From contig JAYZDF010000029.1 in assembly GCA_036337945.1 (NCBI GenBank), positions 19,040 through 83,039 on the forward strand: a stretch of DNA of 64,000 nucleotides, read 5' to 3'. Under the pieces are notes generated by a model that was not told where the DNA came from, did not search any database, and was given only the letters and a program-made list of their open reading frames with translations. This DNA comes from Myxococcota bacterium (lineage in GTDB: Bacteria; Myxococcota; Kuafuiibacteriia; Kuafuiibacteriales; Kuafuiibacteriaceae). The translations under genes and the position numbers were made by a program. Of this stretch, positions 13,095 through 36,537 are shown piece after piece; position 1 is the stretch's first letter, and each line of letters begins with the position of its first letter.

Positions 13095-13345
13095 GTAACG
13101 GCCTGTGCCTGCCAACGTTTTTTAAATCAACCATTGATTCGCTTCAAAGTCGGATGCATACTTTAGGTCCCTGCTGGGTATCGATCACGGTCCTACATTG
13201 GGAACCGTAGAGACTTTATAGGGAGAGGTTCCTTCCGACGCCGCACGGACTACCCATGAGGTAGAGGTAGGTTGCCGGGATCACTTCGCCCACCTGCTGA
13301 GCGCAGGTTCCTCGTAGTATCAGTGCGGTACTTAGGCAGGGGTTA
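13095..13345 (+). ncRNA. ssrS: candidate 6S RNA (ssrS)
   Basis: A non-coding gap of about 290 nt lies between zapA and the 5-formyl-THF cyclo-ligase (ygfA homolog). This is the conserved zapA-ssrS-ygfA context. Distal complementary segments (cctgcc at 13108-13113 with ggcagg at 13335-13340) are compatible with a long closing stem. Boundaries are approximate. Confidence 0.45.
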
Positions 13346-13352
13346 TTTCTTC

Positions 13353-13943
13353 ATGGCTCAACCAGATGTCGAGAAAGCCGCATTTCGGACTCATGCTCGC
13401 AATCAACGAGTGGCCATTTCAAAAGAGCAGAGAAAGGTCGCCAGCGAGCTCGCCTGCAAACATCTCATGAGGTCGAACCTCTGGGCCTCAATTAGCTCGA
13501 TCGCTCTATATGCGGCATATGGAAGCGAGATCGACCCCCTCCCCCTCGAACAAGAGGCGACAAGCAGCGGTAAACGAATATTCTACCCTCGCGTGACTGG
13601 CGACAAACTTGAGTTTGCTGAGTCAAACTATAGCGATTTGACGAAGGGCTTTGCCGCAATTTTTGAGCCGACTGGGCCGCCTGTCGCATTACGCGACATT
13701 GACCTGGTAATCGTGCCCGGACTTGCTTTTGGTCCTCAAGGACAAAGGCTAGGTTCAGGTCGTGGTTTTTATGACCGAAGTCTCAATGGTGATGTTCTGA
13801 CAATTGGAATGGCATTTCACCAGCAAATCAGTAGTCAAGTTCCTACTCTTCCACATGACGTGCGAATGCAAGGAATCCTCACTGACAAGGGATTCACACT
13901 TGAGCCTTCAATCAAAGCAGATAGCGGGCTACACTCCGAGTAG
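13353..13943 (+). CDS. ygfA: 5-formyltetrahydrofolate cyclo-ligase
   Basis: 5-FCL family pattern (LYAAYGSEIDP...RIFYPRV...DLVIVPGLAFGPQGQRLGSGRGFYDR). The ORF track starts at 13272, but Met28 (MAQPDVEK, 13353) is the likelier start given the upstream ncRNA. Confidence 0.75.
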   Translation: MAQPDVEKAAFRTHARNQRVAISKEQRKVASELACKHLMRSNLWASISSIALYAAYGSEIDPLPLEQEATSSGKRIFYPRVTGDKLEFAESNYSDLTKGFAAIFEPTGPPVALRDIDLVIVPGLAFGPQGQRLGSGRGFYDRSLNGDVLTIGMAFHQQISSQVPTLPHDVRMQGILTDKGFTLEPSIKADSGLHSE

Positions 13944-13952
13944 CCGGGATAA

Positions 13953-15425
13953 ATGATGCAGTCACTCAGTCATGAAAATGGGAAAGAATCCGCGATAACT
14001 CTTATTGGCGTAGCCCCTGAATCGAAAAACATGAGTCGACTCAGTGATCAGTTAGACGCACAGGCATTTCTCCCTGATCACGCCTCACTTCTTGCCGCTT
14101 GCAATAACAGCTCAAAGCCCATCGTGATGGTGCTCCCGGCCCACAAGCCTTGGCTTATCCTGAAAGCCGCAAGGCATCCCAACGTTTTGCGTCTTGTCGT
14201 TTTTTACACCCACCAATCCAGCCCATCACGAATCAAACAAGCCCTTACCCGAGCCGCCTTCGCCCTCGTCGACCAGACTATCGTTTGGAGCATCGACGAG
14301 ATCACCTCGGCCGTTAGATCTGGCGCGGACCCTGATCGGATTATTTCCGCGCAACAAACAAACATTGTAGCGCATATACTCGACGAACAGCCCAGGCGTG
14401 CTCAGTCTGAAGCCGCCGCAAGCTTTGGTCTCGACGTCGCTGAAATGACTGGCACCATCCGATTACTCGAAAAGCTTTCCCCAGACAAAGGTGTAAACGT
14501 CATCAATTATCACCGAATCCTTCCTCCCGACGAACACCGAAGATACACGCGACCGCAGCAAGCCCTAGCCTCTCCCATATTCGAAATCCAACTCGAAGAA
14601 TTCGCTAATAGGGATGGTTTCGTCGACCTTGAAAATGTCAGAGATCGAAGCGCCGAGGGCAGCACAGGAATAACATTCGATGATGGTTACGAAGATAACT
14701 TTCGTGTCGCATTACCAGCGCTAAAAAAATGGTCTGTTCCAGCCTGGATTTTCGTCGTAACAGGCCAAGTCGGTAACGCTAACTCGTTATGGTGGGATTA
14801 CATAGGAGACGCACTTTTCGCGCTATGGGAGCAGAAGTCTGCGGAGCTCGAGCACCCGTCTCTACCCATACAATGTGGAGAGCTTTTGAAAACGCGTTCG
14901 ACCTTACAGGCCCGCAGACTCATTTCCGAAATTCTAACTGAACTTAACGCCACAAACGAGCACACCAGAAAAGACGTTTCAGATGTTTTGCGAAAGCTGT
15001 CAGGCCACAGCGAGCAGTCCACGATGCTCTCGTGGGAACAGGTTAAGGAGATGCACGCCTCTGGGATTCAGTTCGGGTCACATACGAGAAATCACGTCTG
15101 CCTCGACGAACTTTCCAGCAAAACGGCGAAGGAAGAAGTCCGAAGTGGGCAAGAAGACCTTGAGAAAGTTTTAGGGGACCGTGCCAAAAAGAGCGTTGCC
15201 TTACCACGTGGAAAACTCGGGCCTTTCACCGAAGAGACACTAAGGGAAGAAGGTTTCGAATCAGTGATGACAACAATTGCAGGTGTAAATAGAAGCTCTG
15301 ATAAATCACTGTTCGTTCTAAGGCGTGATGGAAAAATGCTCACTCTGCGCGGACGTCATCATCCTGCAAAAATGCGACTTGAATTATCTGGATGGCTCGA
15401 CCGTGCGCGGCAACTGCTTCGCTAG
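13953..15425 (+). CDS. polysaccharide deacetylase (NodB-homology) family protein with N-terminal extension of unknown function
   Basis: The C-terminal half has NodB-type motifs (ITFDDGYEDNF; H..HVCLDELS). The N-terminal extension of about 230 aa has no recognisable domain. Confidence 0.6.
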   Translation: MMQSLSHENGKESAITLIGVAPESKNMSRLSDQLDAQAFLPDHASLLAACNNSSKPIVMVLPAHKPWLILKAARHPNVLRLVVFYTHQSSPSRIKQALTRAAFALVDQTIVWSIDEITSAVRSGADPDRIISAQQTNIVAHILDEQPRRAQSEAAASFGLDVAEMTGTIRLLEKLSPDKGVNVINYHRILPPDEHRRYTRPQQALASPIFEIQLEEFANRDGFVDLENVRDRSAEGSTGITFDDGYEDNFRVALPALKKWSVPAWIFVVTGQVGNANSLWWDYIGDALFALWEQKSAELEHPSLPIQCGELLKTRSTLQARRLISEILTELNATNEHTRKDVSDVLRKLSGHSEQSTMLSWEQVKEMHASGIQFGSHTRNHVCLDELSSKTAKEEVRSGQEDLEKVLGDRAKKSVALPRGKLGPFTEETLREEGFESVMTTIAGVNRSSDKSLFVLRRDGKMLTLRGRHHPAKMRLELSGWLDRARQLLR

Positions 15426-15437
15426 GATACTGTTCGT

Positions 15438-16253
15438 TTACCTATCGAGTACAAAAGTAACAGGCACAGGAATCCACATCCCTACAACCGCACCGTCTTG
15501 TATAGCGGGCCTAAATCGCCAGTTTTTCTTCGCGTGCCGGACGGCGCTTTCGTCGCAGCCGTACCCAATCCCCTTGAGGATCTTCACTTTTTCAACGCGT
15601 CCGCTGGCCCCCACGTAAACTCGCAGCATCACACGCCCTTCGATATCGTTTTTGCGGGCCTCTTCCGGATACGGGGGCACACGATCGAATTCGGACGTTA
15701 TGAACTCTGGCGGGCTGTCTTCAAGATCGCCTCTCCCGGGCCCTTTTCCATTACCCGATGCAGGAGCGACTCTCTCCGTCGTTTTACTCCCCGGCGCCAA
15801 AGTATCGTCGGTTGGATCAGCGAACATATTTCCGCCACCGTCAATCGCTCTCGCGGCCACGCCACCCCCCATGACGGTTGAGGACATGTCGACCGAAAAG
15901 CCCATCGGTGGAGGTTGTGGCTTTGGCGGTGGAGGCTCATTACTAGGCGCCGGCTCTGCTTTTGGTTGTGCCTTGTTTTTCCTGACTGGCACACGTGGTT
16001 TTTTCTTTTTGACTTGAGCCGTCTTTACCTTGGGTTTGGGTTTGGGTTTTGGCTTAGGAGGCTCAGCAGGTTTTGGAGGGTCCGGTGCCTTCTTGACTAC
16101 TGGTTTTGGAGGCTTGGGTTTCGTGTTCACAATTTTCATGCGAACCTTCTTTGGACGAGGTACTTTTTCGCGTGCCTCAATATCATTGGCCATAAGCAAG
16201 ATAACGCCATGCAGAAGGACACTCGCGAGTGTTGCAATGCCTATAGACTTCAA
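15438..16253 (-). CDS. tonB: energy transducer TonB
   Basis: N-terminal TM helix, a proline/lysine-rich spacer (PKPPKPVVKKAPDPPKPAEPPKPKPKPKPK) and a C-terminal TonB domain (PPYPEEARKNDIEGRVMLRVYVGASGRVEKVKILKGIGYGCDESAVRHAKKNWRFRPA). Confidence 0.8.
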   Translation of the reverse strand: MKSIGIATLASVLLHGVILLMANDIEAREKVPRPKKVRMKIVNTKPKPPKPVVKKAPDPPKPAEPPKPKPKPKPKVKTAQVKKKKPRVPVRKNKAQPKAEPAPSNEPPPPKPQPPPMGFSVDMSSTVMGGGVAARAIDGGGNMFADPTDDTLAPGSKTTERVAPASGNGKGPGRGDLEDSPPEFITSEFDRVPPYPEEARKNDIEGRVMLRVYVGASGRVEKVKILKGIGYGCDESAVRHAKKNWRFRPAIQDGAVVGMWIPVPVTFVLDR

Positions 16254-16255
16254 AC

Positions 16256-16714
16256 CTACTCCGCTTTCTCTGGGGTTGCTTCGTCGATTTCTTCTGACGC
16301 TGGATCACTAAAATCAGCTTGTGTATTTAACGCAAATTTCGTGATTCCTTCCGTCTTTATTAAGTCGATCAGACCCACAACACGTTCGTGTTTCACGGAG
16401 CCATCAGCTGCAATAATCGCTTCTAGGTCCTCGAGCGTATCTTTTTTCTCACGAATGAACTCTTTGAGAGCTGCTTCATCAACTTTCTTGTTGTTCAAAT
16501 AGATATCGCCTTGTTTCGTAATCACCAAGGCAAGTTGTGATTGGGCAGTCTCTTCCGCAGAAGCCGCCCTGGGTAGGTCAACCTTGATCGCTGGCGTGAC
16601 AATGTAGCTTGCCGTCATCATAAAGATGATCAGCAGAACCAGAACAATATCTACAAGCGGCGTGATGTTGATGCCGGTGATCGCATCTTCATCGTCGTCT
16701 TGAACCCCAGCCAT
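16256..16714 (-). CDS. exbD: biopolymer transport protein ExbD/TolR
   Basis: ExbD/TolR signature (INITPLVDIVLVLLIIFMMT) on a single TM helix. It sits between exbB and tonB. Confidence 0.85.
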   Translation of the reverse strand: MAGVQDDDEDAITGINITPLVDIVLVLLIIFMMTASYIVTPAIKVDLPRAASAEETAQSQLALVITKQGDIYLNNKKVDEAALKEFIREKKDTLEDLEAIIAADGSVKHERVVGLIDLIKTEGITKFALNTQADFSDPASEEIDEATPEKAE

Positions 16715-16716
16715 TT

Positions 16717-17364
16717 CTAGTCGCCTCGCTTACACAGCGTATCCAGTCGTGCTGTAAGTGTGCGCTGAAGTCCGTCAGTACTCGAGATGAAGCCTTTGAC
16801 CTGCGCTTTGAAAAAATTGAATGCAACGACAGCAGGTAAAGCCACGGCCAACCCAACGGCCGTAGCAACCAGGGCCTCGGAAATGCCAGCCATTACCGCA
16901 GAGGCGCCGCCAGCCGCTTGCGATGGGTCAGACAAAGATAGATCTTGGAATGCCTTGATAATACCAAGAACAGTTCCAAGAAGTCCGATAAACGGCGCGT
17001 TATTACCAAGAGTTCCGAGAAATACCAGCCGGGACTCATACCTCGCTTTTTGCCGACCCAGTTCTGCTGACATCATTTCGCGAACGGCGTCAGGGCCCAA
17101 AGAAAGATGTTTGAGGCCAGTCGCAACCACTTGCGTCTCCATTCGATCCTGTTCTGACAACCAGGATGTCGCGTCTTCTATATGCCCGTCATCTAGCCGT
17201 TGACCGAGTTCAGCACCAACTTCTCTAACTTCCAATTTACGAGAGAAATAGAAGTATAGCCGCTCAAGCATGATCGCAATTGACACGATACTCAGGATGA
17301 CGAGTAGCCATAAAACCCATTCCGCACCTAAGAGCGCGAAAGCATTCATCGAACGTTCAAGCAT
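16717..17364 (-). CDS. exbB: MotA/TolQ/ExbB proton channel protein
   Basis: Three TM helices and the conserved C-terminal region (GLLGTVLGIIKAF...AGISEALVATAVGLAVALPAVVAFNFF). Confidence 0.85.
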   Translation of the reverse strand: MLERSMNAFALLGAEWVLWLLVILSIVSIAIMLERLYFYFSRKLEVREVGAELGQRLDDGHIEDATSWLSEQDRMETQVVATGLKHLSLGPDAVREMMSAELGRQKARYESRLVFLGTLGNNAPFIGLLGTVLGIIKAFQDLSLSDPSQAAGGASAVMAGISEALVATAVGLAVALPAVVAFNFFKAQVKGFISSTDGLQRTLTARLDTLCKRGD

Positions 17365-17462
17365 GGTTGGATACTCGCACCGACTGCAGCAAATACGTCA
17401 AGGCCGACTTGGTAATAATTGCAGGTATTTTCGAGTGACTCTGTAACCCGAGGTGTGTGGGT

Positions 17463-17723
17463 TTACGCGGCGTCTTCGGACGGACGCTTGTTGGGGTTGA
17501 TGGGAATGATGACGACACTCTCTTGTTCCTCAGGTTCTTCATACCGAGACTCTTCGTCATACGACGACGGAATAGGCTCCCGATAGACGGGAATCTCAAG
17601 ATGTATACGAGGCCGTGATGATTCTCGCTCGCGTTGCTCTTCCTCGCGCCTAATTGCATCTATTATGTAAGCATCTAGCATCTTTTCGTCCTCTACTTCG
17701 GCAAAACACCTAATAAGCACCAC
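17463..17723 (-). CDS. small acidic hypothetical protein
   Basis: An 86 aa ORF rich in Glu/Arg/Pro with no recognisable domain. It lies upstream of exbB on the same strand. An alternative-frame ORF (17357-17659) overlaps it and is less likely to be real. Confidence 0.3.
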   Translation of the reverse strand: MVLIRCFAEVEDEKMLDAYIIDAIRREEEQRERESSRPRIHLEIPVYREPIPSSYDEESRYEEPEEQESVVIIPINPNKRPSEDAA

Positions 17724-18096
17724 GGAAATTCGTTATGTCCTATATCGGTCCGCTTTCGTTTTTTGGTGACTCTTTTTCATCTCTCACTCAAAAAACGTCC
17801 CATTGACCCAATAAATTCCACCCGTCGGAGTGCTGTGACCAACTTCACATCAAGAGCGAAAAGTTCGCCCTCTATATTACTAGTCGGCCGTAGCCACGAA
17901 ACTGTGACCTAAAATCGGTAAAGGCACCAATTTTTGTCCGTCAAACAAATTTCTCGCCGGTTTACCCTTTTCGGGACGAGCGAGACATAGAGTGCCCTGA
18001 AATTTTCAATCATATGTCTCAACATGCGGTTTTTTTTGATTTTCTTTGGGTTAGCCCATAGCGAAGGAACAAAAATCGAGGTACGAGAACATCAAT
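17724..18096. promoter_or_regulatory. divergent intergenic region of about 370 nt upstream of the BMC operon
   Basis: A long AT-richer non-coding gap separates the minus-strand small ORF/exbB-exbD-tonB cluster from the plus-strand BMC operon. A ribosome-binding-site-like GAGG precedes the 18097 ATG. No specific operator was recognised. Confidence 0.3.
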
Positions 18097-18723
18097 ATGT
18101 CCCAAGGTGTGAAGCTCAGAGCCTACCAATTTCTCGATAGCCTGCAACCACAACTCACGTCGCATATTTGCACAACTTGCCGTGGGTATTTTCCGGTTCC
18201 AGGAATGGCGTCCCTATTCGTAGAGATCGCGCCGGGAATGGCCATCCATCGCCTGATCGACCGTGCCCTCAAAGCCACGGACGTTCAGCCTGCTACCTTG
18301 ATCGTGGAACGAGCGTTTGGGATGTTGGAGATTCATCACAACGATAAGGGCCAGGTCTTAGCTGCGGGCGCGGCAATCCTTGACCAACTGGGGGTATCCG
18401 AGACAGACCGCGTGAAGCCGCGCGTTGTATCGAATACCATTATTCGCTCTATCGAGCCTTACCATGCCATGATTGTTGATAAAATTCGTTTTGGTTCGAT
18501 GATCAGCCCGGGTGAATCGTTGTTAGTGATGGAGACACAACCCGCAGCATACGTTGCCTTCGCAGCGAACGAAGCTGAGAAAGCCGCGAATGTTACCCTC
18601 GTCGACGTAACACCATATGGTGCGTTCGGGCGACTTTACCTAGCTGGAGACGAAGCAGAAATCGACTCCGCTGCACAAGCCGCAGAAGCTGCCATTGCAA
18701 GCATCAGCGGAATAGAACAATAA
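18097..18723 (+). CDS. bacterial microcompartment shell protein, tandem-domain BMC-T, with ~35-aa N-terminal extension
   Basis: This 208 aa protein has two BMC-like segments ([25 protein letters not shown]...[11 protein letters not shown] and [31 protein letters not shown]...[26 protein letters not shown]). Both resemble BMC domain cores: an alpha/beta fold with a D/E-A-x-x-K-A helix. The subtype (permuted PduB/EutL-like versus PduT-like) cannot be decided by eye. Confidence 0.6.
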
Positions 18724-18759
18724 CCCAAATTTAAACTGTAACGATAAGAAGGAAGAACG

Positions 18760-19062
18760 ATGTCGGAAGCACTCGGAATGATCGAAACAAAAGGTTTCGT
18801 AGGAATGGTTGAAGCCTCAGATGCCATGGTTAAAGCAGCCAAGGTCGAACTCGTAGGTTATGAGAAGATTGGTGGAGGTTTCGTAACCTCAATCGTACGT
18901 GGCGATGTTGCAGCGGTGAAAGCAGCCGTAGAGGCAGGCGCGCGAGGCGCTGAACGCGTTGGCGAATTAGTGAGTGTTCATGTCATTCCACGCCCACACG
19001 CAAATATCGATGCCGCATTGCCGCTAGGTCGAGCACCTGCCGCATCAGGAAAAGGCAAGTAG
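18760..19062 (+). CDS. bacterial microcompartment hexamer shell protein BMC-H (PduA/EutM/CcmK family)
   Basis: It aligns nearly end-to-end by eye with PduA: [59 protein letters not shown]...VHVIPRPH. Confidence 0.9.
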
Positions 19063-19065
19063 AAC

Positions 19066-19359
19066 GTGCTCCTTGGCAAGGTCATTGGGACCGTCGTTGC
19101 CAGCAAGAAAGAACCTGAAATCGAAGGGCTAAAACTGCTCGTAGTGAAAGGTTCAGAGCTGGACGGACAAGCCAGCGGTCCAATTGTTGTTGCGGTAGAT
19201 GCCGTTGGTGCAGGCGTAGGCGAACTCGTTTTGTACGCAGCGGGCTCTTCGGCGCGTCAGACAATTCAAACCAAAGACAAGCCCGTGGACCATGTCGTCA
19301 TGGCGATTGTCGACCAAGTCGAGGTCGAAGGTTCACTGCTGTATAACAAAGATAACTAA
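19066..19359 (+). CDS. bacterial microcompartment vertex pentamer BMC-P (EutN/PduN/CcmL family)
   Basis: A 97 aa protein with the EutN-like pattern ([12 protein letters not shown]...LKLLVV.....[31 protein letters not shown]). Confidence 0.9.
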
Positions 19360-19378
19360 TCAAAGCGGGTCCCACTAA

Positions 19379-20842
19379 ATGGTTCAGATAGATGACGCAA
19401 AAATTGAAGAGATCGTGGGTAGGGTCGTCGATCGACTTGTAGGAAGTACTCCACCTTCTTCGTCGTCGGAGCCTTACTGTGCACCGGCTCCCCCAAAATA
19501 TGATCCAGGACCTGCTATTCATACCTCGGGTCTATCCGGTGTTTTCGGTGATCTTGACTCTGCGGTTGCTGCCGCTCACCGGGCGCACGCCGCCCTCGAA
19601 GCCTCTAGCTTAGAGCTACGGTTTAAAATCATCGAGGCTTTCCGGGATTGCGGTCGTCGAGAGGTCGCTAACCTCGCCCGAATGGCGGTTGAAGAGACCG
19701 GTCTTGGAAGATACGACGACAAGATAAATAAGAATCTGCTCGTTATTAATAAGACACCCGGGCCAGAGATTCTAAAGCCTGTTGCCGTATCCGGCGACAA
19801 CGGCCTCATGCTTACTGAACGTGCTGCATATGGCGTTATTGGCGCTATCACGCCGACGACCAACCCTACCGAGACGATCATTTGCAACGGCATTGGTATG
19901 TTATCGGGTGGTAATGCGGTGGTCTTCAACGTTCACCCAGGCGCGAAAAACGTTTGTAACTACCTCGTCGACAAGATCAACAAAGCAAGTGTTGCTGCTG
20001 GCGGGCCTGACAATCTAATTTGTAGCATTGGAGAGCCAACTATTCAGTCAGCGCAAGCCCTCATGACGCACGCAGGTATCCGACTATTGGTGGTTACTGG
20101 CGGACCTGGAGTCGTGAAAGCCGCCATGAAGTCAGGCAAACGAACTATTGCCGGAGGACCTGGCAATCCGCCCGTTGTAGTGGACGAGACGGCTGATATT
20201 CTTCGAGCAGCAAAAGGTATTGTCTCGGGCGGTAGCCTCGACAACTGCATTGTCTGTACGGCAGAAAAAGAGATTTTGGCCGTTGCTGAGATTGCTGACC
20301 TCCTAAAAAGGCAGATTTGTGAAAATGGTGGCTACGAAGTCAAAGGTCCGAACATCAGCAAGCTGCAGCGACTGGTTGTCGCTGAGGATGGCCTCCACCC
20401 GAACAAAGAATGGGTGGGTAAGGACGCCTCGAAGATTCTATCGGCGATCGGCATTACGCCGCCTAGTGGTGTGAGAACCATAATCGTAGAGGGCGATGAA
20501 CAAAGTCCCTTCGTGCAAGGAGAGTTACTCATGCCTGTGCTGGGCTTTGTTCGTGTCCCCAGTGCAGAAGAAGGCATAGCTATGGCCAAACGCGTCGAAC
20601 ATGGCTTTGGACATACTGCCGCGATGTACTCAACCAACATCAATAATCTTCACGCAATGGCTCGTTCCATCAATACCTCGATTTTCACAAAGAACGCGCC
20701 AACTTATGCCGGTCTTGGACTTGGAGGCGAAGGCTATACCTCCTTTACGATCGCCTCTCCGACCGGTGAAGGCCTCACTAATCCAATCCATTTCACACGC
20801 GAAAGACGATGCACACTAGTCGACTCATTCCGTATCATTTAG
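19379..20842 (+). CDS. CoA-acylating aldehyde dehydrogenase (PduP/EutE-like) with N-terminal encapsulation peptide
   Basis: ALDH fold with the catalytic-Cys motif SLDNCIVCTAEKE (compare FDNNLPCIAEKE in PduP) and the glycine-rich NAD site (GGPGNPPVVVDETADI). The N-terminus has a short amphipathic helix (DDAKIEEIVGRVVDRLVG), then a Ser/Pro-rich linker (STPPSSSSEPYCAPAPPKYDPGP), as in BMC encapsulation peptides. Confidence 0.9.
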   Translation: MVQIDDAKIEEIVGRVVDRLVGSTPPSSSSEPYCAPAPPKYDPGPAIHTSGLSGVFGDLDSAVAAAHRAHAALEASSLELRFKIIEAFRDCGRREVANLARMAVEETGLGRYDDKINKNLLVINKTPGPEILKPVAVSGDNGLMLTERAAYGVIGAITPTTNPTETIICNGIGMLSGGNAVVFNVHPGAKNVCNYLVDKINKASVAAGGPDNLICSIGEPTIQSAQALMTHAGIRLLVVTGGPGVVKAAMKSGKRTIAGGPGNPPVVVDETADILRAAKGIVSGGSLDNCIVCTAEKEILAVAEIADLLKRQICENGGYEVKGPNISKLQRLVVAEDGLHPNKEWVGKDASKILSAIGITPPSGVRTIIVEGDEQSPFVQGELLMPVLGFVRVPSAEEGIAMAKRVEHGFGHTAAMYSTNINNLHAMARSINTSIFTKNAPTYAGLGLGGEGYTSFTIASPTGEGLTNPIHFTRERRCTLVDSFRII

Positions 20843-21513
20843 CCTTCACCCTCCTCGTTTTTTCTGGTGTTGCCTGCAGCAGTGACCGATACGTCGGCTC
20901 CCTGGGCAAGTCAGGTATGTACGCAAACCGTGGTTATGGCGTTGTTATACAACTCAACGATCGTGACCTACTGAGTCGGTGGGAATATATCGACCCGCAC
21001 AAGATCGACATCTACAAGGAATCCGTTCGCCCTAGCCTCACCCAAGAAACGATAGATCTAAATGGTGATGGCACTCTTCATCACGACGAAGTTGTCGTGC
21101 AGTGGAAACCAAACTTCAGACTCGTTCATAAAGATGTCGCAACTTCTCGCATTGATCTTGGGGTAGATATTCTCGGGGGGCGAAATAAAGCTGCAGATTT
21201 TGGTGCCTATGTTCGAGCTACCGTGAAGAATGAATTTGGTGTCGAAACCAGCAAAGGAGATTGGAAGGCTTTACGGCTGGGCCCGGACTTTAGGGCGTAC
21301 TCAACCCGGCTCAAAGAAGATGGCCTATTACTCGCAGCCATCGATCAAGGTAACTTTTCTGCGGAAGAAGGCGCTGTGCGCCGACAAATTGTATGGGCTC
21401 GGCTGAAGTCATTAGAACTTACAGAGCAAGAAGAAAAGGATTTTGGATCATTTTTGCGCTCGCTGCTCCTGAATTCTAAGGCGGGAAGGCAAACAACCTG
21501 GGAGAAATATTGA
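20809..21513 (+). CDS. hypothetical protein encoded inside the BMC operon (possible signal peptide; EF-hand-like DxNxDG loop)
   Basis: A 234 aa protein with no family recognised. The N-terminus (MHTSRLIPYHLAFTLLVFSGVAC) looks like a signal or lipoprotein peptide. An alternative start at Met37 (20917) would remove it. It has a DLNGDGTL motif. Its start overlaps the AldDH stop by 34 nt. Its stop overlaps the downstream BMC-T start (ATGA). Confidence 0.35.
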   Translation: MHTSRLIPYHLAFTLLVFSGVACSSDRYVGSLGKSGMYANRGYGVVIQLNDRDLLSRWEYIDPHKIDIYKESVRPSLTQETIDLNGDGTLHHDEVVVQWKPNFRLVHKDVATSRIDLGVDILGGRNKAADFGAYVRATVKNEFGVETSKGDWKALRLGPDFRAYSTRLKEDGLLLAAIDQGNFSAEEGAVRRQIVWARLKSLELTEQEEKDFGSFLRSLLLNSKAGRQTTWEKY

Positions 21514-22121
21514 TTCAGTCTACGCCACTAATGGTCGACGGTGATGCCATCGCCGTTTTTGAAATAGCGTCAATTGCCCGTGGCGTTGTTGTATTGGATC
21601 AAATGGCAAAGCGTGCCTTCACTGAAATCATATCGTCTAAAACCGTCTCCCCTGGCAAATATCTCATTATTTTGACCGGGTCTGTTGCGGAAATAGAGGA
21701 AGCAAGTTTTGCCGCGCTTGAATCGATGCAAGATGATCACATCGACCATATTATCCTACGAGACCCTCACCCTCTTTTGCGAACAACCTTCGCAAATAAA
21801 CTCGAACCCAACTTCCGAGAGTCTGTTTCGATATGCGAATTTTTTACACTGAGTAGCACGATTCACGCGCTCGACGTAATTCTGAAGAGCTCCGGCGTTG
21901 AAGTTATTGAGTTACGTCTGGGCGCAGGGCTAGATGGTAAAGGAATCTTTACCGTAACAGGCTCTTTGGATACGATTGAAGCCGCATGTGACTTAGTAGA
22001 AAGTAATATTGACCATACGAAGATTCATCGCATTGAGAAGATTGCCCAAATCCACGAAGACCTGCCCAAGCATTTACTTGGCGCCGAGCTTCCCGCTTCG
22101 CGCGGCACACCGTCTAAATAG
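21510..22121 (+). CDS. bacterial microcompartment tandem-domain shell protein BMC-T, PduT-like, lacking the Fe-S ligand cysteine
   Basis: This 203 aa protein aligns by eye with PduT across both domains. Domain 1: AIAVFEIASIARGVVVLDQMAKRAFTEIISSKTVSPGKYLIILTGSVAEIEEA versus PduT [53 protein letters not shown]. Domain 2: HALDVILKSSGVEVIELRLGAGLDGKGIFTVTGSLDTIEAA. PduT Cys38 corresponds to Ser47 here (TCC at 21648-21650). Confidence 0.8.
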   Translation: MIQSTPLMVDGDAIAVFEIASIARGVVVLDQMAKRAFTEIISSKTVSPGKYLIILTGSVAEIEEASFAALESMQDDHIDHIILRDPHPLLRTTFANKLEPNFRESVSICEFFTLSSTIHALDVILKSSGVEVIELRLGAGLDGKGIFTVTGSLDTIEAACDLVESNIDHTKIHRIEKIAQIHEDLPKHLLGAELPASRGTPSK

Positions 22122-22323
22122 CGGAAACGGTTTTTCCGTGCACAAAAACTAAAAATGCCATCGATGGGCGTCGACTTCCTTCTCGCATCGCAAAGTGAAT
22201 AGCATCTAGACTCCAACCCAACGCGGCCATCTCATTGAGTTTCTCCTCAATGGTATCATCCGTTACGGTAGAGAGCTCGATAACCTTATAAGATGGATTG
22301 TCTTTCGTATCAGTCGTTGTCAC
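22114..22323 (-). CDS. DUF4177-like small protein
   Basis: A 69 aa protein with the pattern YKVIELS....D..EEKLNEMAALGWSL typical of DUF4177. It is the last gene of the minus-strand hem operon. Its 3' end overlaps the BMC-T 3' end by 8 nt in convergent orientation. Confidence 0.45.
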   Translation of the reverse strand: MTTTDTKDNPSYKVIELSTVTDDTIEEKLNEMAALGWSLDAIHFAMREGSRRPSMAFLVFVHGKTVSAI

Positions 22324-23047
22324 AGCTGCCCCCTACTTTATCGAGAAGAGCTTCAATCAGCAATTCAAGCTCTGGATTGGCTGGACAGACCAGGGAATTG
22401 AGCCCCAGTTTTTCGGCATGCTCTCTCGTATTTTGACCGATAACTCCTACAGTTCGATAGCTCAAATATCCAAGGGCCGTGTCATGAGAACGGAAGAAAG
22501 AGTCCAATGTTCGCCCAGAAAAAAACAGCACATCCGTTATCGCCGGATCTGGCAGAGCGTCATGTCTGCACATCTCAATGGAGTAGATGGCTAATGTACT
22601 GACCGTTACTCCTTGCTCTATGAGTGGCGACACAAAAGAAGCCTTCGCCTGTTTTGCTTGAGGGCAAAACACTCGCAATTCCTTCATGTCTGCCTCAGCC
22701 CTAGAGAACCAATCAAGGATGCCTTCTCCATCAAACCGGTCCGGCACAAAGATGTCTCGCTCTTGCAACCATTGCCGTGCGGCGGCAGCCGTACGTCCGC
22801 CCACTGCGAGTATTTTCACGTGTTGAGGAGGTACCACATGCTCAGTCTTCATATAGCGAACCGTGTTCGCAGAAGTGAGCACTAAATAATCAAAATCTTC
22901 CCAAGAAGGCCATGTAACGGAAATCCGACGTGTCTGTATGTACGGAATGACTTCAACTTCGGCTCCGTGTGCTTCCAAAAGTCGTGTGACTGCTATGGAC
23001 TGTTCTCTTTGTCGAGTAACAAGAACTTTTCTGCCTACTAAACTCAT
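22310..23047 (-). CDS. hemD: uroporphyrinogen-III synthase
   Basis: A 245 aa protein with the HemD-like two-lobe pattern (VLVTRQREQS..LLEAHGAEV..PYI; VLFFSGRTLDSF). It lies immediately downstream of hemC in the operon. Confidence 0.7.
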   Translation of the reverse strand: MSLVGRKVLVTRQREQSIAVTRLLEAHGAEVEVIPYIQTRRISVTWPSWEDFDYLVLTSANTVRYMKTEHVVPPQHVKILAVGGRTAAAARQWLQERDIFVPDRFDGEGILDWFSRAEADMKELRVFCPQAKQAKASFVSPLIEQGVTVSTLAIYSIEMCRHDALPDPAITDVLFFSGRTLDSFFRSHDTALGYLSYRTVGVIGQNTREHAEKLGLNSLVCPANPELELLIEALLDKVGGSCDND

Positions 23048-23967
23048 TTGTCTTTCAGCGAGGCCAACACATTGTCTGCGCCTTGTTCTAAAACAATATT
23101 CGCAACAGAAATCCCAACTGAGAGTGCATCACTGACTGGTCCTTTTGACTCGGCACGGTAAATTGTTTTTCCATCTAAACTCGCAACGAGTCCTTTGAGA
23201 TGAATCTCTGAACCGTCCACTGTGGCATGGCCCGCGATAGGAACTTGGCAGCCTCCTTCCAGCTTAGCCAAAAAGCCACGTTCACACTCAGCGCATGCCC
23301 GAGTGTCACGGTCATCTAACGCCGACACAATTGCGTTGGTATCGTCATCGTCGATTCTTGTTTCAACAGCGAGAATTCCTTGTCCGACTGCGGGCAAACA
23401 CATCTCTTGACTGATAATTTCGGAAACAAATTCTTCCATGCGCAACCGCTTTAGCCCCGCATACGCGAGAATGGTCCCATGCATGTTTTCTTCCTTCATC
23501 CGTCGGATTCTTGTTTGCACATTGCCTCGGATTGGAACAATCTCTAAATCCGGTCGGTGGTGGAGGAATTGCGCAGCTCGCCTCAAAGAAGATGTCCCTA
23601 TCCGCGCTCCTTTTGGTAACGTTTCAAAGGTGAATCCTTGTGGTGAAACAAGCGCATCTCTCGGGTCCTCTCGCTTCGGGTAAGCTGTGATCACGAGACC
23701 GTCCGGCAAGGTCGTTGGGACGTCTTTCAAGGAATGAACTGCAACCTGAGCTCGACCATCAAGAAGAGCATTCTCAATCTCTTTTACGAAAAGGTCTTTA
23801 CCGCCGACTTTAGACAGCGCCTTATCAAGTATTCGATCTCCTTTCGTGGTCATACCAAGCAATGACACTTCAAGACCAAGTTGAGCCTCTCTCATGAGCT
23901 GCGCAACGTGCTCTGCTTGCCAAAGCGCTAAAGGGCTCTCGCGAGTAGAAATACACTTCTTACTCAA
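23044..23967 (-). CDS. hemC: hydroxymethylbilane synthase (porphobilinogen deaminase)
   Basis: Strong HemC pattern (RESPLALWQAEHV...TKGDRILD..LSKVGGKDLFVKEIE.ALLDGRAQVAVHSLKDVPT; dipyrromethane cofactor Cys in GGCQVPIAGHA). Confidence 0.9.
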   Translation of the reverse strand: MSKKCISTRESPLALWQAEHVAQLMREAQLGLEVSLLGMTTKGDRILDKALSKVGGKDLFVKEIENALLDGRAQVAVHSLKDVPTTLPDGLVITAYPKREDPRDALVSPQGFTFETLPKGARIGTSSLRRAAQFLHHRPDLEIVPIRGNVQTRIRRMKEENMHGTILAYAGLKRLRMEEFVSEIISQEMCLPAVGQGILAVETRIDDDDTNAIVSALDDRDTRACAECERGFLAKLEGGCQVPIAGHATVDGSEIHLKGLVASLDGKTIYRAESKGPVSDALSVGISVANIVLEQGADNVLASLKDK

Positions 23968-25304
23968 GTTCCTGACTCCGATTTTTTGTTTATCGGTACA
24001 ACCGTAGCCGCGGGTTCTTGCTCAACATCGATAGATTCTTCGGAATCAGAGCTATCAACGCTCAGATCGAATAGTTTCTGCGTAAAATCAACGAAAGGCC
24101 CAGGGTCGCCCTGCTCGCCAGCTGAACGCAGTTGCTTGAGCACTGGATGAAGAAGTTTATTTGTCACCGCATTGGCTGTTGCATCGAGTTTGGAACCAGA
24201 TAGTACACCTCCGCGCCGAAGTTCCTCTTGAGCCAGTTTGAACGTTCGCTGTCGCAACGCTTTCACTGTCGGCACCACCAACTGTGCCCGGTTCCATTTC
24301 ACAAACTCTTCTAGTTCAGCGGCAATAAGTTGCTCAGCAGCTAACGCTTCTTTCGCTCGGCTCGCGCGGTTATCACGGATAACATCTTGCAGATCATCTA
24401 CATCGTACACGAAAACGTTTTCTAGTTCGTCTAACGCGGGATCGATATCGCGCGGCACAGCAATATCTACGAAAAGTATCGGACGGTATCTTCTGCGACG
24501 AACGACTCCGCTCATCATTCTCTTATCAACAATGTATTCAGGTGACGCGGTTGAAGAAATGACAATATCACAGTCCACCAATTGTTCGGCAATATCTGAG
24601 AGAGGATGTGCGTTACCGTCTACTTGAGCCGCCAACTCTTGCGCTCGCGCCAGTGAACGGTTGGCCACGCGAATTTCTTGAATACCCGAGTTTCGAAGGT
24701 GTTTCGCTGCAAGAACGGACATTTTCCCAGCACCGATGACCAAGACTTTTTTACCCGCTAAGCTATCAAAGATTTCTTTGCCAAGCTCAACCGCCGCAAA
24801 ACTCATAGAAACAGCGTTCTCCGCGATTCCGGTTTCCGTACGAACTCGTTTGGCGACATAGAATGCCTTCTCGAAGATTTTGTTCAGTTTAGGCCCGACG
24901 GTTCCGGTATTTCGCGCAAGTTGGTAGGCTTCTTTCACCTGCCCCAAGATCTGGGGCTCACCGACTACCATCGAATCTAAAGATGACGACACTCTGAACA
25001 AATGACTGAATGCATCGGGGCCGTAGTGTGTGTATAGATGAGGAGCAAGATCTTCTTCTGCAAGTCCGGTCTCTTTCGATACTTGCCCCCAAATACGTTT
25101 CACACAATCTTGCGCTAGGTCCGAGCAACACACGTAGAGTTCGACTCGATTACAGGTAGAAATGATGATAATTTGCTCTAAGGATTCAAGCTCTGAGAAA
25201 CGCCGAAGAGCAAGCTTCACCGGCGTGACCACTTTGGCCAAGGATTCTCGAACCTCTAAAGGCGCGGTGTGATGCGAAAGACCCGTGATAAAGAACCGAA
25301 CCAT
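23964..25304 (-). CDS. hemA: glutamyl-tRNA reductase
   Basis: HemA motifs (FFITGLSHHTAPLEVRE; STCNRVELY; NADPH site VLVIGAGKMS). The ORF track extends to 25463, but Met54 (MVRFF) at 25304 is the canonical start. It overlaps the stop of the upstream hemX/ccsA-like gene. Confidence 0.9.
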   Translation of the reverse strand: MVRFFITGLSHHTAPLEVRESLAKVVTPVKLALRRFSELESLEQIIIISTCNRVELYVCCSDLAQDCVKRIWGQVSKETGLAEEDLAPHLYTHYGPDAFSHLFRVSSSLDSMVVGEPQILGQVKEAYQLARNTGTVGPKLNKIFEKAFYVAKRVRTETGIAENAVSMSFAAVELGKEIFDSLAGKKVLVIGAGKMSVLAAKHLRNSGIQEIRVANRSLARAQELAAQVDGNAHPLSDIAEQLVDCDIVISSTASPEYIVDKRMMSGVVRRRRYRPILFVDIAVPRDIDPALDELENVFVYDVDDLQDVIRDNRASRAKEALAAEQLIAAELEEFVKWNRAQLVVPTVKALRQRTFKLAQEELRRGGVLSGSKLDATANAVTNKLLHPVLKQLRSAGEQGDPGPFVDFTQKLFDLSVDSSDSEESIDVEQEPAATVVPINKKSESGT

Positions 25305-26176
25305 TACACGACCTCCTGTCCGTGAACGGTTGTGCCAGTGACACCCAATCCGATAAAGGTCATCAAAATCGCAATTACGCAACAAATGGTCAACCAAGCC
25401 GCCTTGCGGCCTCTCCAACCGATGATCAGTCGTGCATAGAGCATCGCCGCGTACGTAACCCACACCGCCGCACTGACAACATTACGCGTGTCCCAGCTCC
25501 ATAAGTCGCCGGACGTAACCTTCCCGTAGACCATTCCGGAGATGATACCCAAGGTCATGAGAGGGAAACCGAATTTGAACAACCAAACGTTGACTCGGTC
25601 GAGTGCCTCAAGTGCCGGCAGTTGAGTCATACCTGTATTCGAACCCCAGCCGTCTCCCGTCCGTCGGGTTCCCGGCTTACCTTTGGACTTCTTGCGTTTC
25701 CTCTTTCTAATGCGTCGCTCCTGAAGCAAATATACAGAGGCCGTAATTCCGGCGACGACAAACGCTGAATCTCCGAGTAAGGCCATCCCAATGTGCGCAC
25801 TCAGCCAAATGGATTTTAGACTCTCAGGTGCTTCGGCAACGGACTTCAGGTTACTTGAAATAAGAACCATCAAACTTACAAGCGGCATAGCTAGCCACGC
25901 AACTTGCGGTACACCGCCCCGAAACGCCACGACGAGTGAGATTGAAAGCAGCAAAAAGCCAAATACCGATAGCGCATCGTGAGCATCTGCTAACGGAAAA
26001 GCGGATAGTTCGACCATCCGCCCCCCAACGGCAAGCGCGTGAAAGATGACCGAAGTAACAACCAACATCATCACTCGTTTCGCGCCCGAATCGGAAGGCC
26101 GCAAAATATGAAGAACTACCGCGAGTGTGCCTATCGCATACACAAGGGCGCTGAGCTGTAGTAAGGCAGTCGGCAT
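25304..26176 (-). CDS. cytochrome c assembly protein family (HemX/CcsA-like) membrane protein
   Basis: Polytopic membrane protein with a Trp-rich segment (WSWDTRNVVSAAVWVTYAAMLYARLIIGWRG) resembling the CcsA/ResC WWD region. It sits immediately upstream of hemA, as in hemAX operons. Confidence 0.65.
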   Translation of the reverse strand: MPTALLQLSALVYAIGTLAVVLHILRPSDSGAKRVMMLVVTSVIFHALAVGGRMVELSAFPLADAHDALSVFGFLLLSISLVVAFRGGVPQVAWLAMPLVSLMVLISSNLKSVAEAPESLKSIWLSAHIGMALLGDSAFVVAGITASVYLLQERRIRKRKRKKSKGKPGTRRTGDGWGSNTGMTQLPALEALDRVNVWLFKFGFPLMTLGIISGMVYGKVTSGDLWSWDTRNVVSAAVWVTYAAMLYARLIIGWRGRKAAWLTICCVIAILMTFIGLGVTGTTVHGQEVV

Positions 26177-26320
26177 AAGTATCGTTACATCAACAAAAGT
26201 GTCTCATGGGCCACAAATAGTGCAAACCCCTAATCCACAACTATTTTACCTCGATATGCTTCAAAGAGCGAAGAAGTAAAGACGTCGGAGGAATACTTTG
26301 GTACCCATCGGCTGTTCACG

Positions 26321-26671
26321 GTGTTGGACAGGAGGAACATTATGGCAAGTGAATCATTAGTCAATTTTGAAGAAAACAACTTCGACAGCGAAGTTCTCAA
26401 CTCAGAGATCCCAGTACTCGTAGACTTTTGGGCTCCTTGGTGTGCACCGTGTCGCGCAATCGCTCCAAGCGTCGAGGCACTCGCAGACGAATATGCTGGG
26501 AAGGTCAAAGTTGGTAAGCTGAATATTGACGATAATCCTACTATTCCAGGAAAGTACGGCATTCGTAGTATCCCAACCCTTTTGGTATTCAAGGGTGGCG
26601 ACGTGGTCGACCAACAGGTTGGCGGCGTTAACAAAGCAGCTATCGAAGGGATGATCAAAAAGGCACTCTAA
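26321..26671 (+). CDS. trxA: thioredoxin
   Basis: A 116 aa protein with a WCAPC active site in the thioredoxin context (VLVDFWAPWCAPCRAIAP...IRSIPTLLVFKGG). Confidence 0.85.
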   Translation: MLDRRNIMASESLVNFEENNFDSEVLNSEIPVLVDFWAPWCAPCRAIAPSVEALADEYAGKVKVGKLNIDDNPTIPGKYGIRSIPTLLVFKGGDVVDQQVGGVNKAAIEGMIKKAL

Positions 26672-26672
26672 A

Positions 26673-27188
26673 GTGTTTATTCTTGTATTTCTCGCAATCA
26701 TTATCGGTTTTGTGCTGATCGCTCTCATCGGAGCAACGTCACCTCCTGTAGAGCACCCCGATTTTACATCCGGTGCTGACCACGCGAACCTATTCGACCT
26801 GAGCGCAGACCAGCTGGGCCGCATCGTAGGACTCCTAATCAGCAAGATGGGTCTTGAACTTGATCGTGCTTCAGGTGGAAGCGGCGGTGAGGTGGAAATA
26901 TACGCAATTAACCCGACCCCGCTTACTGGTGGAAAGATACTTATCCACTGTCTTCCCGCACCGAGCGAAGATGGAAAAGTGAATGGATTACGCGTCGCCC
27001 AATTTATTCGTGCGACACGCAGCGCTTACGTATCGAAGGGGCTGCTTTTCACGACCGGTGATATTACGCCTGATGGACGACTTGAAGCAGAAGACAGCCC
27101 AGTCGAACTCTTCGACCGTATGCAGCTTGCTTCATTGATAGAGGAGCACATCGGCGAGCTTACGCCTGAGCTACTGTCCGAGCTGTAA
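26673..27188 (+). CDS. membrane-anchored restriction-endonuclease-like (Mrr-cat-like) protein
   Basis: An N-terminal TM helix is followed by a segment resembling the Mrr catalytic fold (GGEVEIYAIN...KILIHCL...AQFIRATRSAYVSKGLLFTTGDITPDG). The assignment is tentative. Confidence 0.35.
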   Translation: MFILVFLAIIIGFVLIALIGATSPPVEHPDFTSGADHANLFDLSADQLGRIVGLLISKMGLELDRASGGSGGEVEIYAINPTPLTGGKILIHCLPAPSEDGKVNGLRVAQFIRATRSAYVSKGLLFTTGDITPDGRLEAEDSPVELFDRMQLASLIEEHIGELTPELLSEL

Positions 27189-34387: not shown

Positions 34388-35335
34388 TTACAGCTTCAGG
34401 CGAATCGCCTTGTGAAAGTTGGAGAATCGGGCGGGAAGTCGACCTGGTTGTTCTCCGTCAATATCTAATAAAACGTTAGCCTCATCTCTAAAGGGGATTG
34501 CCTGAATCATTTTTCCGCGAGAAGAACGCACGCTTTGCCAGTGAATCGCGCGCCCAGCGTATAAATCGGAGGTCTTGAGCACTTCTTTCATACCTGCTCG
34601 AATCTGAGTCACTACATCGAATTCGCCGTCGTCAATCTTCGCATTGGGAGCCATATGCATCCCACCGCCAAAATATTGCCCATTAGCTATCGCAACCGTG
34701 ACAAGTGGTTCATCAACAAAGACTTCATCATCTACACTTACACGAACATGTTGGCGTCGGTATGAGGCGAGCGCGCGTAAAGTATTTATATAAAAGGAAA
34801 TGCGTCCACCGAGAGCCTTTGACCCTTTGTTGATTTTATCTGCCACCACTCCAGAAAGACCAAAACTCGCAATATTAAGAAAAGCCTGTCCTTTTGGTTG
34901 TCCTCGGTGGTCGACAAATTCGACCCAACCGAGATCACATGGCTGCGTCTTCTCTCCAGCTAAATGGGCGACAGACCCAGGAATAGTCCCGGGTAAATCA
35001 AACAATCGTGCAAAGTCGCCACCGGTTCCTGATCGTACCGCACCAATAATTATATCGTCTTTGACAAGTCGAGGATTACTGCCGTCTTTCTCGCTTTCAA
35101 ACAAGCCATTTACAACCTCGTTCATTGTGCCATCGCCACCTACAGACACAATCATTTCATAGCCGTCCATCACTGCTTGCTTTGACAAACGAGTCGCGTC
35201 GCCTGGGGCTTTCGTAAATGCGAAATCCCATTTCGTCAGAACTTTATTTAACGCTCGCTGTAGCTCCGGCCAATATCTTCCCGTCGCGCCACTTTGGCTC
35301 GCTGGATTAACAATTACGTAGGTAAAGTAACTCAT
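34388..35335 (-). CDS. diacylglycerol/lipid kinase family protein (YegS/BmrU-like)
   Basis: DAGK catalytic-domain pattern (YVIVNPASQSGATG...VSVGGDGTMNEVVNGL...GGDFARL). Confidence 0.75.
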   Translation of the reverse strand: MSYFTYVIVNPASQSGATGRYWPELQRALNKVLTKWDFAFTKAPGDATRLSKQAVMDGYEMIVSVGGDGTMNEVVNGLFESEKDGSNPRLVKDDIIIGAVRSGTGGDFARLFDLPGTIPGSVAHLAGEKTQPCDLGWVEFVDHRGQPKGQAFLNIASFGLSGVVADKINKGSKALGGRISFYINTLRALASYRRQHVRVSVDDEVFVDEPLVTVAIANGQYFGGGMHMAPNAKIDDGEFDVVTQIRAGMKEVLKTSDLYAGRAIHWQSVRSSRGKMIQAIPFRDEANVLLDIDGEQPGRLPARFSNFHKAIRLKL

Positions 35336-36537
35336 CAGAAGTCTTCCGTGTGCGCCGCAAGTATTTCCATTGCGTCAATGACTTTCTCTTTCGGTGCAAC
35401 TGAACGTAAGTGGGCAATACAGCGCGGACTGAAACTAGTTAGGCGGCTAGCATCAGACTGTCTGAGGGCAACAATCTTGGCCGAGGCCATCTCTCTTGCG
35501 GTATTCGGCCTTGTAATCGGTAGCAGACCTGCAGCGCCACAACAGTCATGCATATTTCCGGTCAGGTCGTTGAGTTCCCGAGGAATACTTCCCGTTGCCG
35601 AACTAATCAATGCATACTCCGTGCCTTTGCGCTGAAGACCATTTCGAGTGTGGCAGCACTCCGAAATAGCGAAATCTGCGAACTTTTTCGGAGAACCGGT
35701 ATCCTCACGCCCCTCAATCAACTCGCCATGTAGAAACTCAGTCACGGTCGAAATTTTCGTATCCAGCGTAACACCCATTTCGGGATAACGTTCAACAAAG
35801 GCGTGAGCGCACGCCGAGTCATGAACTATCACCGAATCTTCCTCAGACAACTTGGCGGCAACGCGTGTCGCATGCTCACGAAAGCTGTCCACATCGCCCG
35901 CCCACAAAAGAGGCAAACCGCAGCATTGCGCAGAAAGCTCACTCACTTTTACAGATTGGAGTCCATATTTCGAAACGACTCGGGCAAAGGCGCTAACACT
36001 TTCGGGCTGTTCCGCAATCGCAGAGCAACCCGCAAAGTAGAGGCTTTTATTTTCGTCATCTCTGGACGTTGTCGACGGCAAAAGCGAATCCGCGTGGCCC
36101 ATCAGTTCAGGAACTAGATCACGACCATATGGATTTCCGTTGATCGCAAACTTATCGCGTACTTCTACAACCTTCGGCGAAGCCAAGCCTGCATCTAATA
36201 CCCGTGCTCGACCTAGGGTGAGAATCGCCGGAACATCGTTGCTGTGCAAACAGACATCTGAACACGCACCGCAATGTGTACACAAGAATGGAAGCTCGGC
36301 GTAATCCTCAATCTTCGACCAACCGCGTTTTACAAAACCGCTGGCATTCACGAGATTCCAGGGTGTCGAGGTTTCTCGCCCCTCTGATTCTGCTACGGGA
36401 CAAGCCCAACGACAAAGCTTCGGGCATGTCATGCAAATGTCTATCTGCTGATCTTCTTGGTGAGAATCACCGCTTAGGATGGGCAAAGGACGCTTCACGA
36501 CTGCCTTCCTTTGAACATTCCACCAGGGTCTATGCAA
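35335..36537 (-). CDS. (Fe-S)-binding protein, GlcF/heterodisulfide-reductase-like
   Basis: Two ferredoxin-type Cys clusters (CMTCPKLCRWACP; CTHCGACSDVC) plus Cys-rich CCG-type segments. It overlaps the upstream FAD-oxidase gene. Confidence 0.7.
   Translation of the reverse strand: MHRPWWNVQRKAVVKRPLPILSGDSHQEDQQIDICMTCPKLCRWACPVAESEGRETSTPWNLVNASGFVKRGWSKIEDYAELPFLCTHCGACSDVCLHSNDVPAILTLGRARVLDAGLASPKVVEVRDKFAINGNPYGRDLVPELMGHADSLLPSTTSRDDENKSLYFAGCSAIAEQPESVSAFARVVSKYGLQSVKVSELSAQCCGLPLLWAGDVDSFREHATRVAAKLSEEDSVIVHDSACAHAFVERYPEMGVTLDTKISTVTEFLHGELIEGREDTGSPKKFADFAISECCHTRNGLQRKGTEYALISSATGSIPRELNDLTGNMHDCCGAAGLLPITRPNTAREMASAKIVALRQSDASRLTSFSPRCIAHLRSVAPKEKVIDAMEILAAHTEDF

Follow-up and report, generated by a model that had tools for sequence, protein, structure and literature searches.

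The window analysed here, a 64-kb stretch of contig JAYZDF010000029.1 from an uncultured Myxococcota bacterium, contains an operon for a bacterial microcompartment (BMC) in the order BMC-T(dp), BMC-H, BMC-P, aldehyde dehydrogenase, gene X and BMC-T(S). The last gene encodes a shell protein of two fused BMC domains, which carries a serine, Ser47, at the position at which the shell protein PduT has the cysteine ligand (Cys38) of a [4Fe-4S] cluster. Sequence alignments, a structural model, conservation among orthologues and the composition of the operon were compared, and they suggest that this protein is the single-layer trimer of a Haliangium ochraceum (HO)-type shell, in which a serine at the pore is the ordinary state.

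The BMC-T protein and its pore residue

The open reading frame (ORF) of the BMC-T protein (21510..22121, +) begins with a TTG start codon and encodes 203 amino acids. Its start and the stop of the upstream gene X share four nucleotides (TTGA), an overlap that is identical in two related loci, L001 and L002, and the products called on related contigs are either 203 or 200 amino acids long. The protein has an exact match in the NCBI database, MEE2901620.1, which is annotated as 'BMC domain-containing protein [Myxococcota bacterium]'. Pfam family PF00936 matches in two stretches (E 2e-23), and the two consecutive, non-permuted pfam00936 domains in a single chain place the protein in the BMC-T(S) class; it is an orthologue of Haliangium BMC-T1 (HO-5812). 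TIGR02526, the NCBIfam model for PduT, aligns with residues 13-187 over model positions 4-180 of 182, which agrees with the original prediction of an alignment with PduT across both BMC domains; however, the score of 92.4 bits does not reach the equivalog cutoff of 250.3 bits. The protein is therefore not a PduT equivalog.

The domain-1 pore loop consists of T45-V46-S47-P48-G49-K50-Y51 (21642..21662, +) and corresponds to the loop that contains Cys38 in PduT and Ser55 in Haliangium BMC-T1. In phmmer searches against PDB chains, residues 10-73 align gap-free, and Ser47 (TCC, 21648-21650) pairs with the cysteine of 'KPVCPGKY' in the Desulfitobacterium protein 3NWG, with Ser55 of wild-type Haliangium ochraceum BMC-T1 ('SRPVSSGKH', 5DIH) and with the engineered cysteine of its S55C variant ('SRPVCSGKH', 5DII). 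The serine of the TVSPGKY motif had thus been assigned correctly to the PduT cysteine position: no nearby cysteine moves into the Cys38 position in the alignment, and domain 1 is free of cysteine, so that it offers no other one at the threefold axis. In place of the CP(G/S)K motif, which provides the pore cysteine of PduT and BMC-T(SE) proteins, the window protein has S47-P-G-K. Its two cysteines, C109 and C160, are both located in domain 2. Read from the sequence, the counterpart of the pore loop in domain 2 is G140-L141-D142-G143-K144 (21927..21941, +), which likewise contains no cysteine; G143 and K144 are kept in at least 95% of the orthologues, and position 142 is variable (D, S, T, A or G).

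From an alignment of 70 sequences, AlphaFold2 (AF2) gave a confident model of the BMC-T monomer (pLDDT 92.2, pTM 0.87), which contains the beta-alpha-beta-beta-alpha-beta pattern twice. Ser47 closes the strand formed by residues 39-47 and is positioned directly ahead of the P48-G49 hairpin turn; the equivalent hairpin loop forms the central pore of BMC-domain proteins. In the model, the first strand of domain 2 contains C109 and a helix contains C160, hence neither cysteine is part of a pore loop. A Foldseek search of the PDB ranked structures of Haliangium BMC-T1 at the top (5DIH, 6N0F, 5DII and 6N06, with template modelling (TM) scores of 0.78-0.87) and PduT of Salmonella and Citrobacter (3N79, 3PAC) lower, with TM scores of 0.62-0.69. 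All top fold matches are BMC-T(S) structures.

Related loci were collected by a scan of species-representative genomes together with exact look-ups, which yielded 34 loci (L001-L034); a scan of genome contigs with the single BMC-T protein returned no relative. One of the two scan patterns contains 'SPG', and the scan alone can therefore not discriminate between serine and cysteine; most loci of the Kofleriaceae, however, carry 'SGGKH' and must have been found through the other pattern. Ser47 is present without exception in the 33 distinct orthologues, which share 33-53% identity with the window protein, and this answers the check on serine versus cysteine that had been proposed along with the original prediction. 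It belongs to about 30 positions that keep the same residue in 95% or more of the orthologues. The pore serine is encoded by TCG in 21 loci, by TCC in eight and by AGC in six; both serine codon families are thus in use, which argues for long-term selection for serine rather than a recent accident. This pattern indicates long-term purifying selection on the residue throughout the Haliangium-type clade. By comparison, none of the cysteine positions is kept throughout the clade: C109 and C160 are present only in the closest relatives, and many orthologues lack cysteine entirely. In one locus, L027, the motif SRPVSSGKHL is that of the Haliangium protein. A distant subclade (homologues P0065-P0070 and P0076-P0087 as well as loci L004 and L005) has the motif C-R-P-V-S-P-G-K, in which a cysteine is conserved four residues upstream of the pore serine (query position 43).

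Beyond the orthologues, a word-index search retrieved 91 homologues, among which threonine occupies the pore position in three closer metagenomic proteins and cysteine in none. Since this search is possibly biased towards 'SPGK' words, residue frequencies were taken from an exhaustive HMMER search without a word index, which covered 1.84 billion cluster representatives and yielded 926 relatives at E <= 0.001. In the best 150 of these 926 representatives, the pore residue is Ser in 65, Cys in 35, His in 16, Thr in 15, Glu in eight, Gln in four, Asn in three, Asp in two, and Pro and Met in one each (a tally of 151 rows with 66 Ser also counts the query); since the ranking follows similarity to a query that carries serine, these proportions are not family-wide frequencies. 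The sequences show that cysteine is one state among several at the pore position, and serine is not unusual for the family. To speak of a cysteine 'replaced' by serine implied a derived oddity, and this is not supported: serine is invariant within the Haliangium-type clade and the commonest residue among the nearest representatives.

The microcompartment operon and its surroundings

The first gene of the operon (18097..18723, +) encodes a BMC-T(dp) protein, i.e. a permuted tandem-BMC protein of the double-stacking CsoS1D/CcmP-like type, which is orthologous to HO-5816 (BMC-T2). Its best PDB match is HO-5816 in 5V74 (E 4.5e-82, 278 bits, full length), and the orthologue in L001 carries the CsoS1D_N and BMC domains. 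It is followed by the gene for the hexameric shell protein BMC-H (18760..19062, +; PF00936, E 4.7e-30), whose best natural PDB match is HO-5815 (5DJB; E 9e-46, 158 bits), and by the gene for the pentameric vertex protein BMC-P (19066..19359, +; PF03319, E 1e-27), which matches best the BMC-P of the Haliangium shell 5V74 (E 3.7e-32, 114 bits). The fourth gene (19379..20842, +; NF011927 and PF00171) encodes a microcompartment-type aldehyde dehydrogenase, the sole recognisable enzyme of the operon. It scores 626 bits on NF011927 compared to a cutoff of 403 bits, gives weaker matches to models of acetylating acetaldehyde dehydrogenases and is probably coenzyme A (CoA)-acylating. The operon thus combines an aldehyde dehydrogenase with shell genes orthologous to HO-5816, HO-5815, BMC-P and HO-5812, it has a serine at the BMC-T1 pore position, and the exact BMC-T protein stems from a metagenome-assembled genome (MAG) of the Myxococcota, as is characteristic of HO-type loci. 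A search with Rfam over the entire window, including the 440 bp that precede the operon, gave no match to an RNA family.

The same gene order, T2-H-P-AldDH-(X)-T1, where T2 is BMC-T(dp), T1 is BMC-T(S) and AldDH is the aldehyde dehydrogenase, recurs in 33 loci when loci of sufficient length are searched with the six window proteins using tblastn. The source labels of the loci are Myxococcota, Myxococcales, Kofleriaceae and 'Deltaproteobacteria' MAGs, with the exception of two labelled only 'bacterium' and Siculibacillus sp. The order is interrupted in L004 and L005, where the T2-H and AldDH-T1 pairs are about 4.5 kb apart and BMC-P was not detected by tblastn; unrelated genes, such as those for a MutH-like protein and a response regulator, are located between the two pairs. 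Identity to the window proteins is 80-89% for BMC-H, 59-83% for T2, 58-76% for BMC-P and 54-76% for the aldehyde dehydrogenase, in comparison to 33-53% for T1. T1 is thus the fastest-evolving shell gene; its product is by far the tile under the weakest constraint, with the pore serine among the few positions that are exceptions. In L001, L002 and L006, relatives whose BMC-T is about 50% identical, the entire neighbourhood 13272..27188 is kept, namely 5-FTHF cyclo-ligase, polysaccharide deacetylase, TonB/ExbD/ExbB, the microcompartment operon, hemD/hemC/hemA and a cytochrome c assembly protein. Because the whole chromosomal neighbourhood is conserved in these relatives, the microcompartment locus of this lineage looks like a vertically inherited feature of the core genome and not like a mobile island.

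Gene X (20809..21513, +; NCBI locus tag VYC39_04785) encodes a protein of 234 amino acids of unknown family, for which no Pfam or NCBIfam match was obtained, and overlaps the aldehyde dehydrogenase gene by 34 nucleotides and the BMC-T gene by four. Copies are also found at 7288..8004 in L002 and at about 9300..10004 in L001. The gene is kept in place in L001-L003 and L006-L013, with an identity of 88% in the near-identical L001 and of 29-35% in L002, L003 and L006-L013; it is specific to the clade of the window and was found by tblastn to be absent from Kofleriaceae-type loci. The conserved N-terminus of the protein (MHxxRxxPYxL, a hydrophobic stretch and A-C-S/G-S) resembles a lipoprotein signal peptide, although a gene for an exported lipoprotein is not what one would expect within an operon of this kind. 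On the contig from the Joint Genome Institute (JGI), the start of gene X is called 36 codons late, whereby the signal-like N-terminus is lost. Residues 83-94 (about 21055..21090) form a canonical EF-hand-type calcium-binding loop, DLNGDGTLHHDE, which is kept as DIDGDGILTLTE in the 33% identical copy of L002. The sole PDB match of the protein is weak and concerns a sarcoplasmic calcium-binding protein (E 0.097).

The BMC-T gene is flanked by gene X and hemD, and not by a gene for MNdh or PduS. Pfam scans of the larger ORFs found no PduS/MNdh-like protein in the 64-kb window. A motif scan for ORFs with an Fe-S dicluster served as a proxy for PduS; the sole Fer4-type ORF with such a motif in the window encodes a GlcF-like CCG/Fer4_8 protein about 14 kb from the operon, which is unrelated to PduS, and in the related loci the scan returned one candidate ORF of 646 amino acids in L007. 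The GlcF-like Fe-S protein belongs to a region (35335..39344, -) in which it follows a 949-amino-acid FAD-linked oxidase with FAD_binding_4 in two stretches, possibly a GlcD/GlcE-like fusion. In addition, neither an alcohol dehydrogenase nor a phosphotransacylase is present in the window. The main HO-type locus is thus devoid of a recognisable module for NAD+ recycling, be it an alcohol dehydrogenase or MNdh/BMC-T(SE); several other locus types also have neither of the two recycling systems, and the literature leaves open how NAD+ and CoA are recycled in them (PMC11626177).

The rest of the window is core chromosome and contains genes for SMC, FtsY, ZapA, TonB/ExbBD, hemA/C/D, AspRS and ScpA/B, and also for PNPase, TruB, RbfA and IF-2. 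Two large Ser/Thr protein kinases are also encoded in the window, one at 31813..34350 and one at 54130..57285 (-); the latter is a protein of 1051 amino acids with the kinase domain at its N-terminus and an FGE-sulfatase (formylglycine-generating enzyme-like) domain at its C-terminus.

Interpretation of the pore serine

Domain architecture, residue equivalence, conservation, type of operon and the absence of partner genes from the window point in the same direction. With a probability of roughly 85%, the BMC-T protein is the single-layer trimer (BMC-T1) of an HO-type shell of an uncultured member of the Myxococcota, and serves as a structural facet tile with a cluster-free, hydroxyl-lined pore. 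By homology to 5DIH and 6N06, three protomers would assemble into a pseudo-hexameric, single-layer tile that is placed in the shell facets beside BMC-H. The beta-hairpin loops of domain 1 (V-S-P-G-K) would then meet at the threefold axis, so that three Ser47 hydroxyls line the pore. Since such a pore has no thiolate ligand, it is most likely free of a [4Fe-4S] cluster, and the tile would thus be a structural element with a small polar pore, which could act at most as a conduit for small metabolites but not for electrons. Larger cofactors might cross the shell through the CsoS1D-like BMC-T(dp) tile; the pores of BMC-T(dp) proteins have been described as large and gated (PMC8217296). A cluster-free pore also fits the operon, which lacks a PduS/MNdh flavo-iron-sulfur partner that could supply a cluster with electrons. 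That the pore is probably cluster-free had been part of the original prediction, and this part is supported by the homology to 5DIH, which has the serine, and to 5DII, in which S55C binds a cluster, as well as by the lack of PduS/MNdh in the window.

Several points weigh against this reading. The absence of a cluster, most likely as it is, is argued from homology at a single residue. The phmmer scores are nearly equal, with 83 bits for the cysteine-bearing 3NWG, the best sequence match in the PDB, and 79.5 bits for Haliangium BMC-T1, and the orthology call leans on the fold ranking and on synteny. An AF2 run on three concatenated copies without an alignment was unusable (pLDDT 45.7, pTM 0.26) and no pore geometry was taken from it; the placement of Ser47 at the axis is inherited from homology to 5DIH and 5DII and is accordingly a presumed one. 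Furthermore, tblastn found one BMC-P gene and no further shell genes, such as those of a satellite locus, in the 64-kb window, whereas according to the BMC catalogue all HO loci encode a BMC-P triplet; in type I HO loci, the two extra BMC-P genes are part of a satellite locus with an aldolase (PMC8217296). The remaining two BMC-P genes may be located in a satellite locus outside the window.

It is possible, though we regard it as the less probable case, that the invariant Ser/Thr does not only line the pore but serves as a specific selectivity filter based on hydrogen bonds, or as a site of regulation, for the substrate of the HO-type compartment. Such a role would be in line with the conservation of Ser47 as one of the about 30 most conserved positions in the fastest-evolving shell protein, with threonine as the only residue that replaces it and with the use of both serine codon families. 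However, packing at the threefold axis would account for the conservation equally well, and HO compartments have no known substrate (PMC8217296). A more far-reaching version, in which the Ser/Thr ring is a substrate-specific filter or regulatory site and the compartment of the marine clade is, in addition, tied to the envelope or to calcium via protein X, appears doubtful.

The protein could also be a true PduT/BMC-T(SE) orthologue that has recently lost its ligand in this lineage, and thus a degenerate electron-conduit tile. The PduT model aligns over both domains, 3NWG with its pore cysteine is the best sequence match in the PDB, and TCC is one nucleotide away from TGC. A loss of this kind is nevertheless very unlikely: the score of 92 bits is far from the equivalog cutoff of 250 bits, the fold comparison ranks Haliangium BMC-T1 above PduT, no PduS/MNdh was found in the window, and cysteine occupies the pore position in none of the 91 word-index homologues. 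Moreover, the serine is invariant in 33 orthologues at 33-53% identity and is encoded by both codon families, which speaks for an old, selected state. Least likely of all is a trimer in which other ligands, such as Cys109, Cys160, Asp142 or the serine hydroxyls, hold a metal or an Fe-S cluster: Ser and Asp can occasionally ligate Fe-S clusters and Asp142 adjoins the conserved G143-K144 in the domain-2 loop, but the two cysteines are confined to the closest relatives and lie in a strand (C109) and a helix (C160) outside the pore loops of the AF2 model, many orthologues are free of cysteine, position 142 varies, and the Haliangium protein required S55C to take up a cluster.

Comparison with known BMC-T(S) proteins

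The observation of the pore serine is correct but ordinary: a serine at this position is usual for HO-type BMC-T1 proteins and had been described for them before. The S55C variant of Haliangium BMC-T1 (5DII) holds a [4Fe-4S] cluster at the threefold axis, with the three Cys55 residues there as ligands (PMC6696605). Because this cluster had to be engineered via S55C, the wild-type protein is a precedent for a cluster-free trimer. Sutter et al. reported in 2024 that CP(G/S)K shows universal conservation among those BMC-T(S) proteins that are encoded beside MNdh/PduS, and that conservation of the cysteine at the pore does not extend to other BMC-T(S) proteins, 'such as ... Haliangium ochraceum BMC-T' (PMC11626177). 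The novelty implied by the original prediction is thereby lost, as the absence of the cysteine away from MNdh was already in the literature, with Haliangium named as an example. The BMC catalogue defines the HO locus type, reports it from about 40 further genomes, notes that it occurs in myxobacteria, calls its function enigmatic and gives no known substrate (PMC8217296). The discovery value is thus small, given that the serine of HO-type BMC-T1 was already the basis for Fe-S engineering through S55C and is stated in the 2024 paper on MNdh/BMC-T(SE). Modest by-products are the long-term purifying selection on the serine, the lack of a recognisable module for NAD+ recycling in the main locus and the extra conserved gene in the operon of one marine clade.

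The closest known system is BMC-T1 of Haliangium ochraceum (HO-5812), for which structures of the wild type (5DIH), the S55C variant (5DII) and the assembled shell (6N06) are available. Both proteins consist of tandem, non-permuted BMC domains, have a serine at the pore within the motif V-S-(P/S)-G-K and are found in the Myxococcota, and both are encoded downstream of an aldehyde dehydrogenase gene; the BMC-T(dp), BMC-H and BMC-P genes of the two operons are orthologous. However, they share only about 33-35% identity, and the window protein has SPGKY where the Haliangium protein has SSGKH. In the clade of the window, the additional gene X separates the aldehyde dehydrogenase gene from the BMC-T gene, which is not the case in Haliangium, and the window genome, in contrast to Haliangium, is a MAG of about 50% G+C with its closest relative from a JGI metagenome.

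PduT and other BMC-T(SE) proteins (3N79 and 3PAC from Salmonella and Citrobacter, 3NWG from Desulfitobacterium) have the tandem BMC-T(S) fold and the x-P-G-K architecture of the loop in common with the window protein. In contrast to them, the window protein lacks the cysteine of CP(G/S)K and an adjacent MNdh/PduS gene, reaches 92 instead of 250 bits on the PduT model and has TM scores of 0.62-0.69 with the PduT structures. A function as an electron conduit has no basis here in sequence or genomic context, because the pore cysteine and MNdh/PduS are absent and the protein matches the PduT model and the PduT fold poorly. Laboratory versions of the same substitution exist in the form of PduT C38S (3N79) and the designed cages that are based on it (4NWN, 8T6N), and TISPGKF of 4NWN aligns with TVSPGKY of the window protein. 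These are, however, engineered mutants of a cluster-binding protein, whereas the serine of the window protein is natural and conserved.

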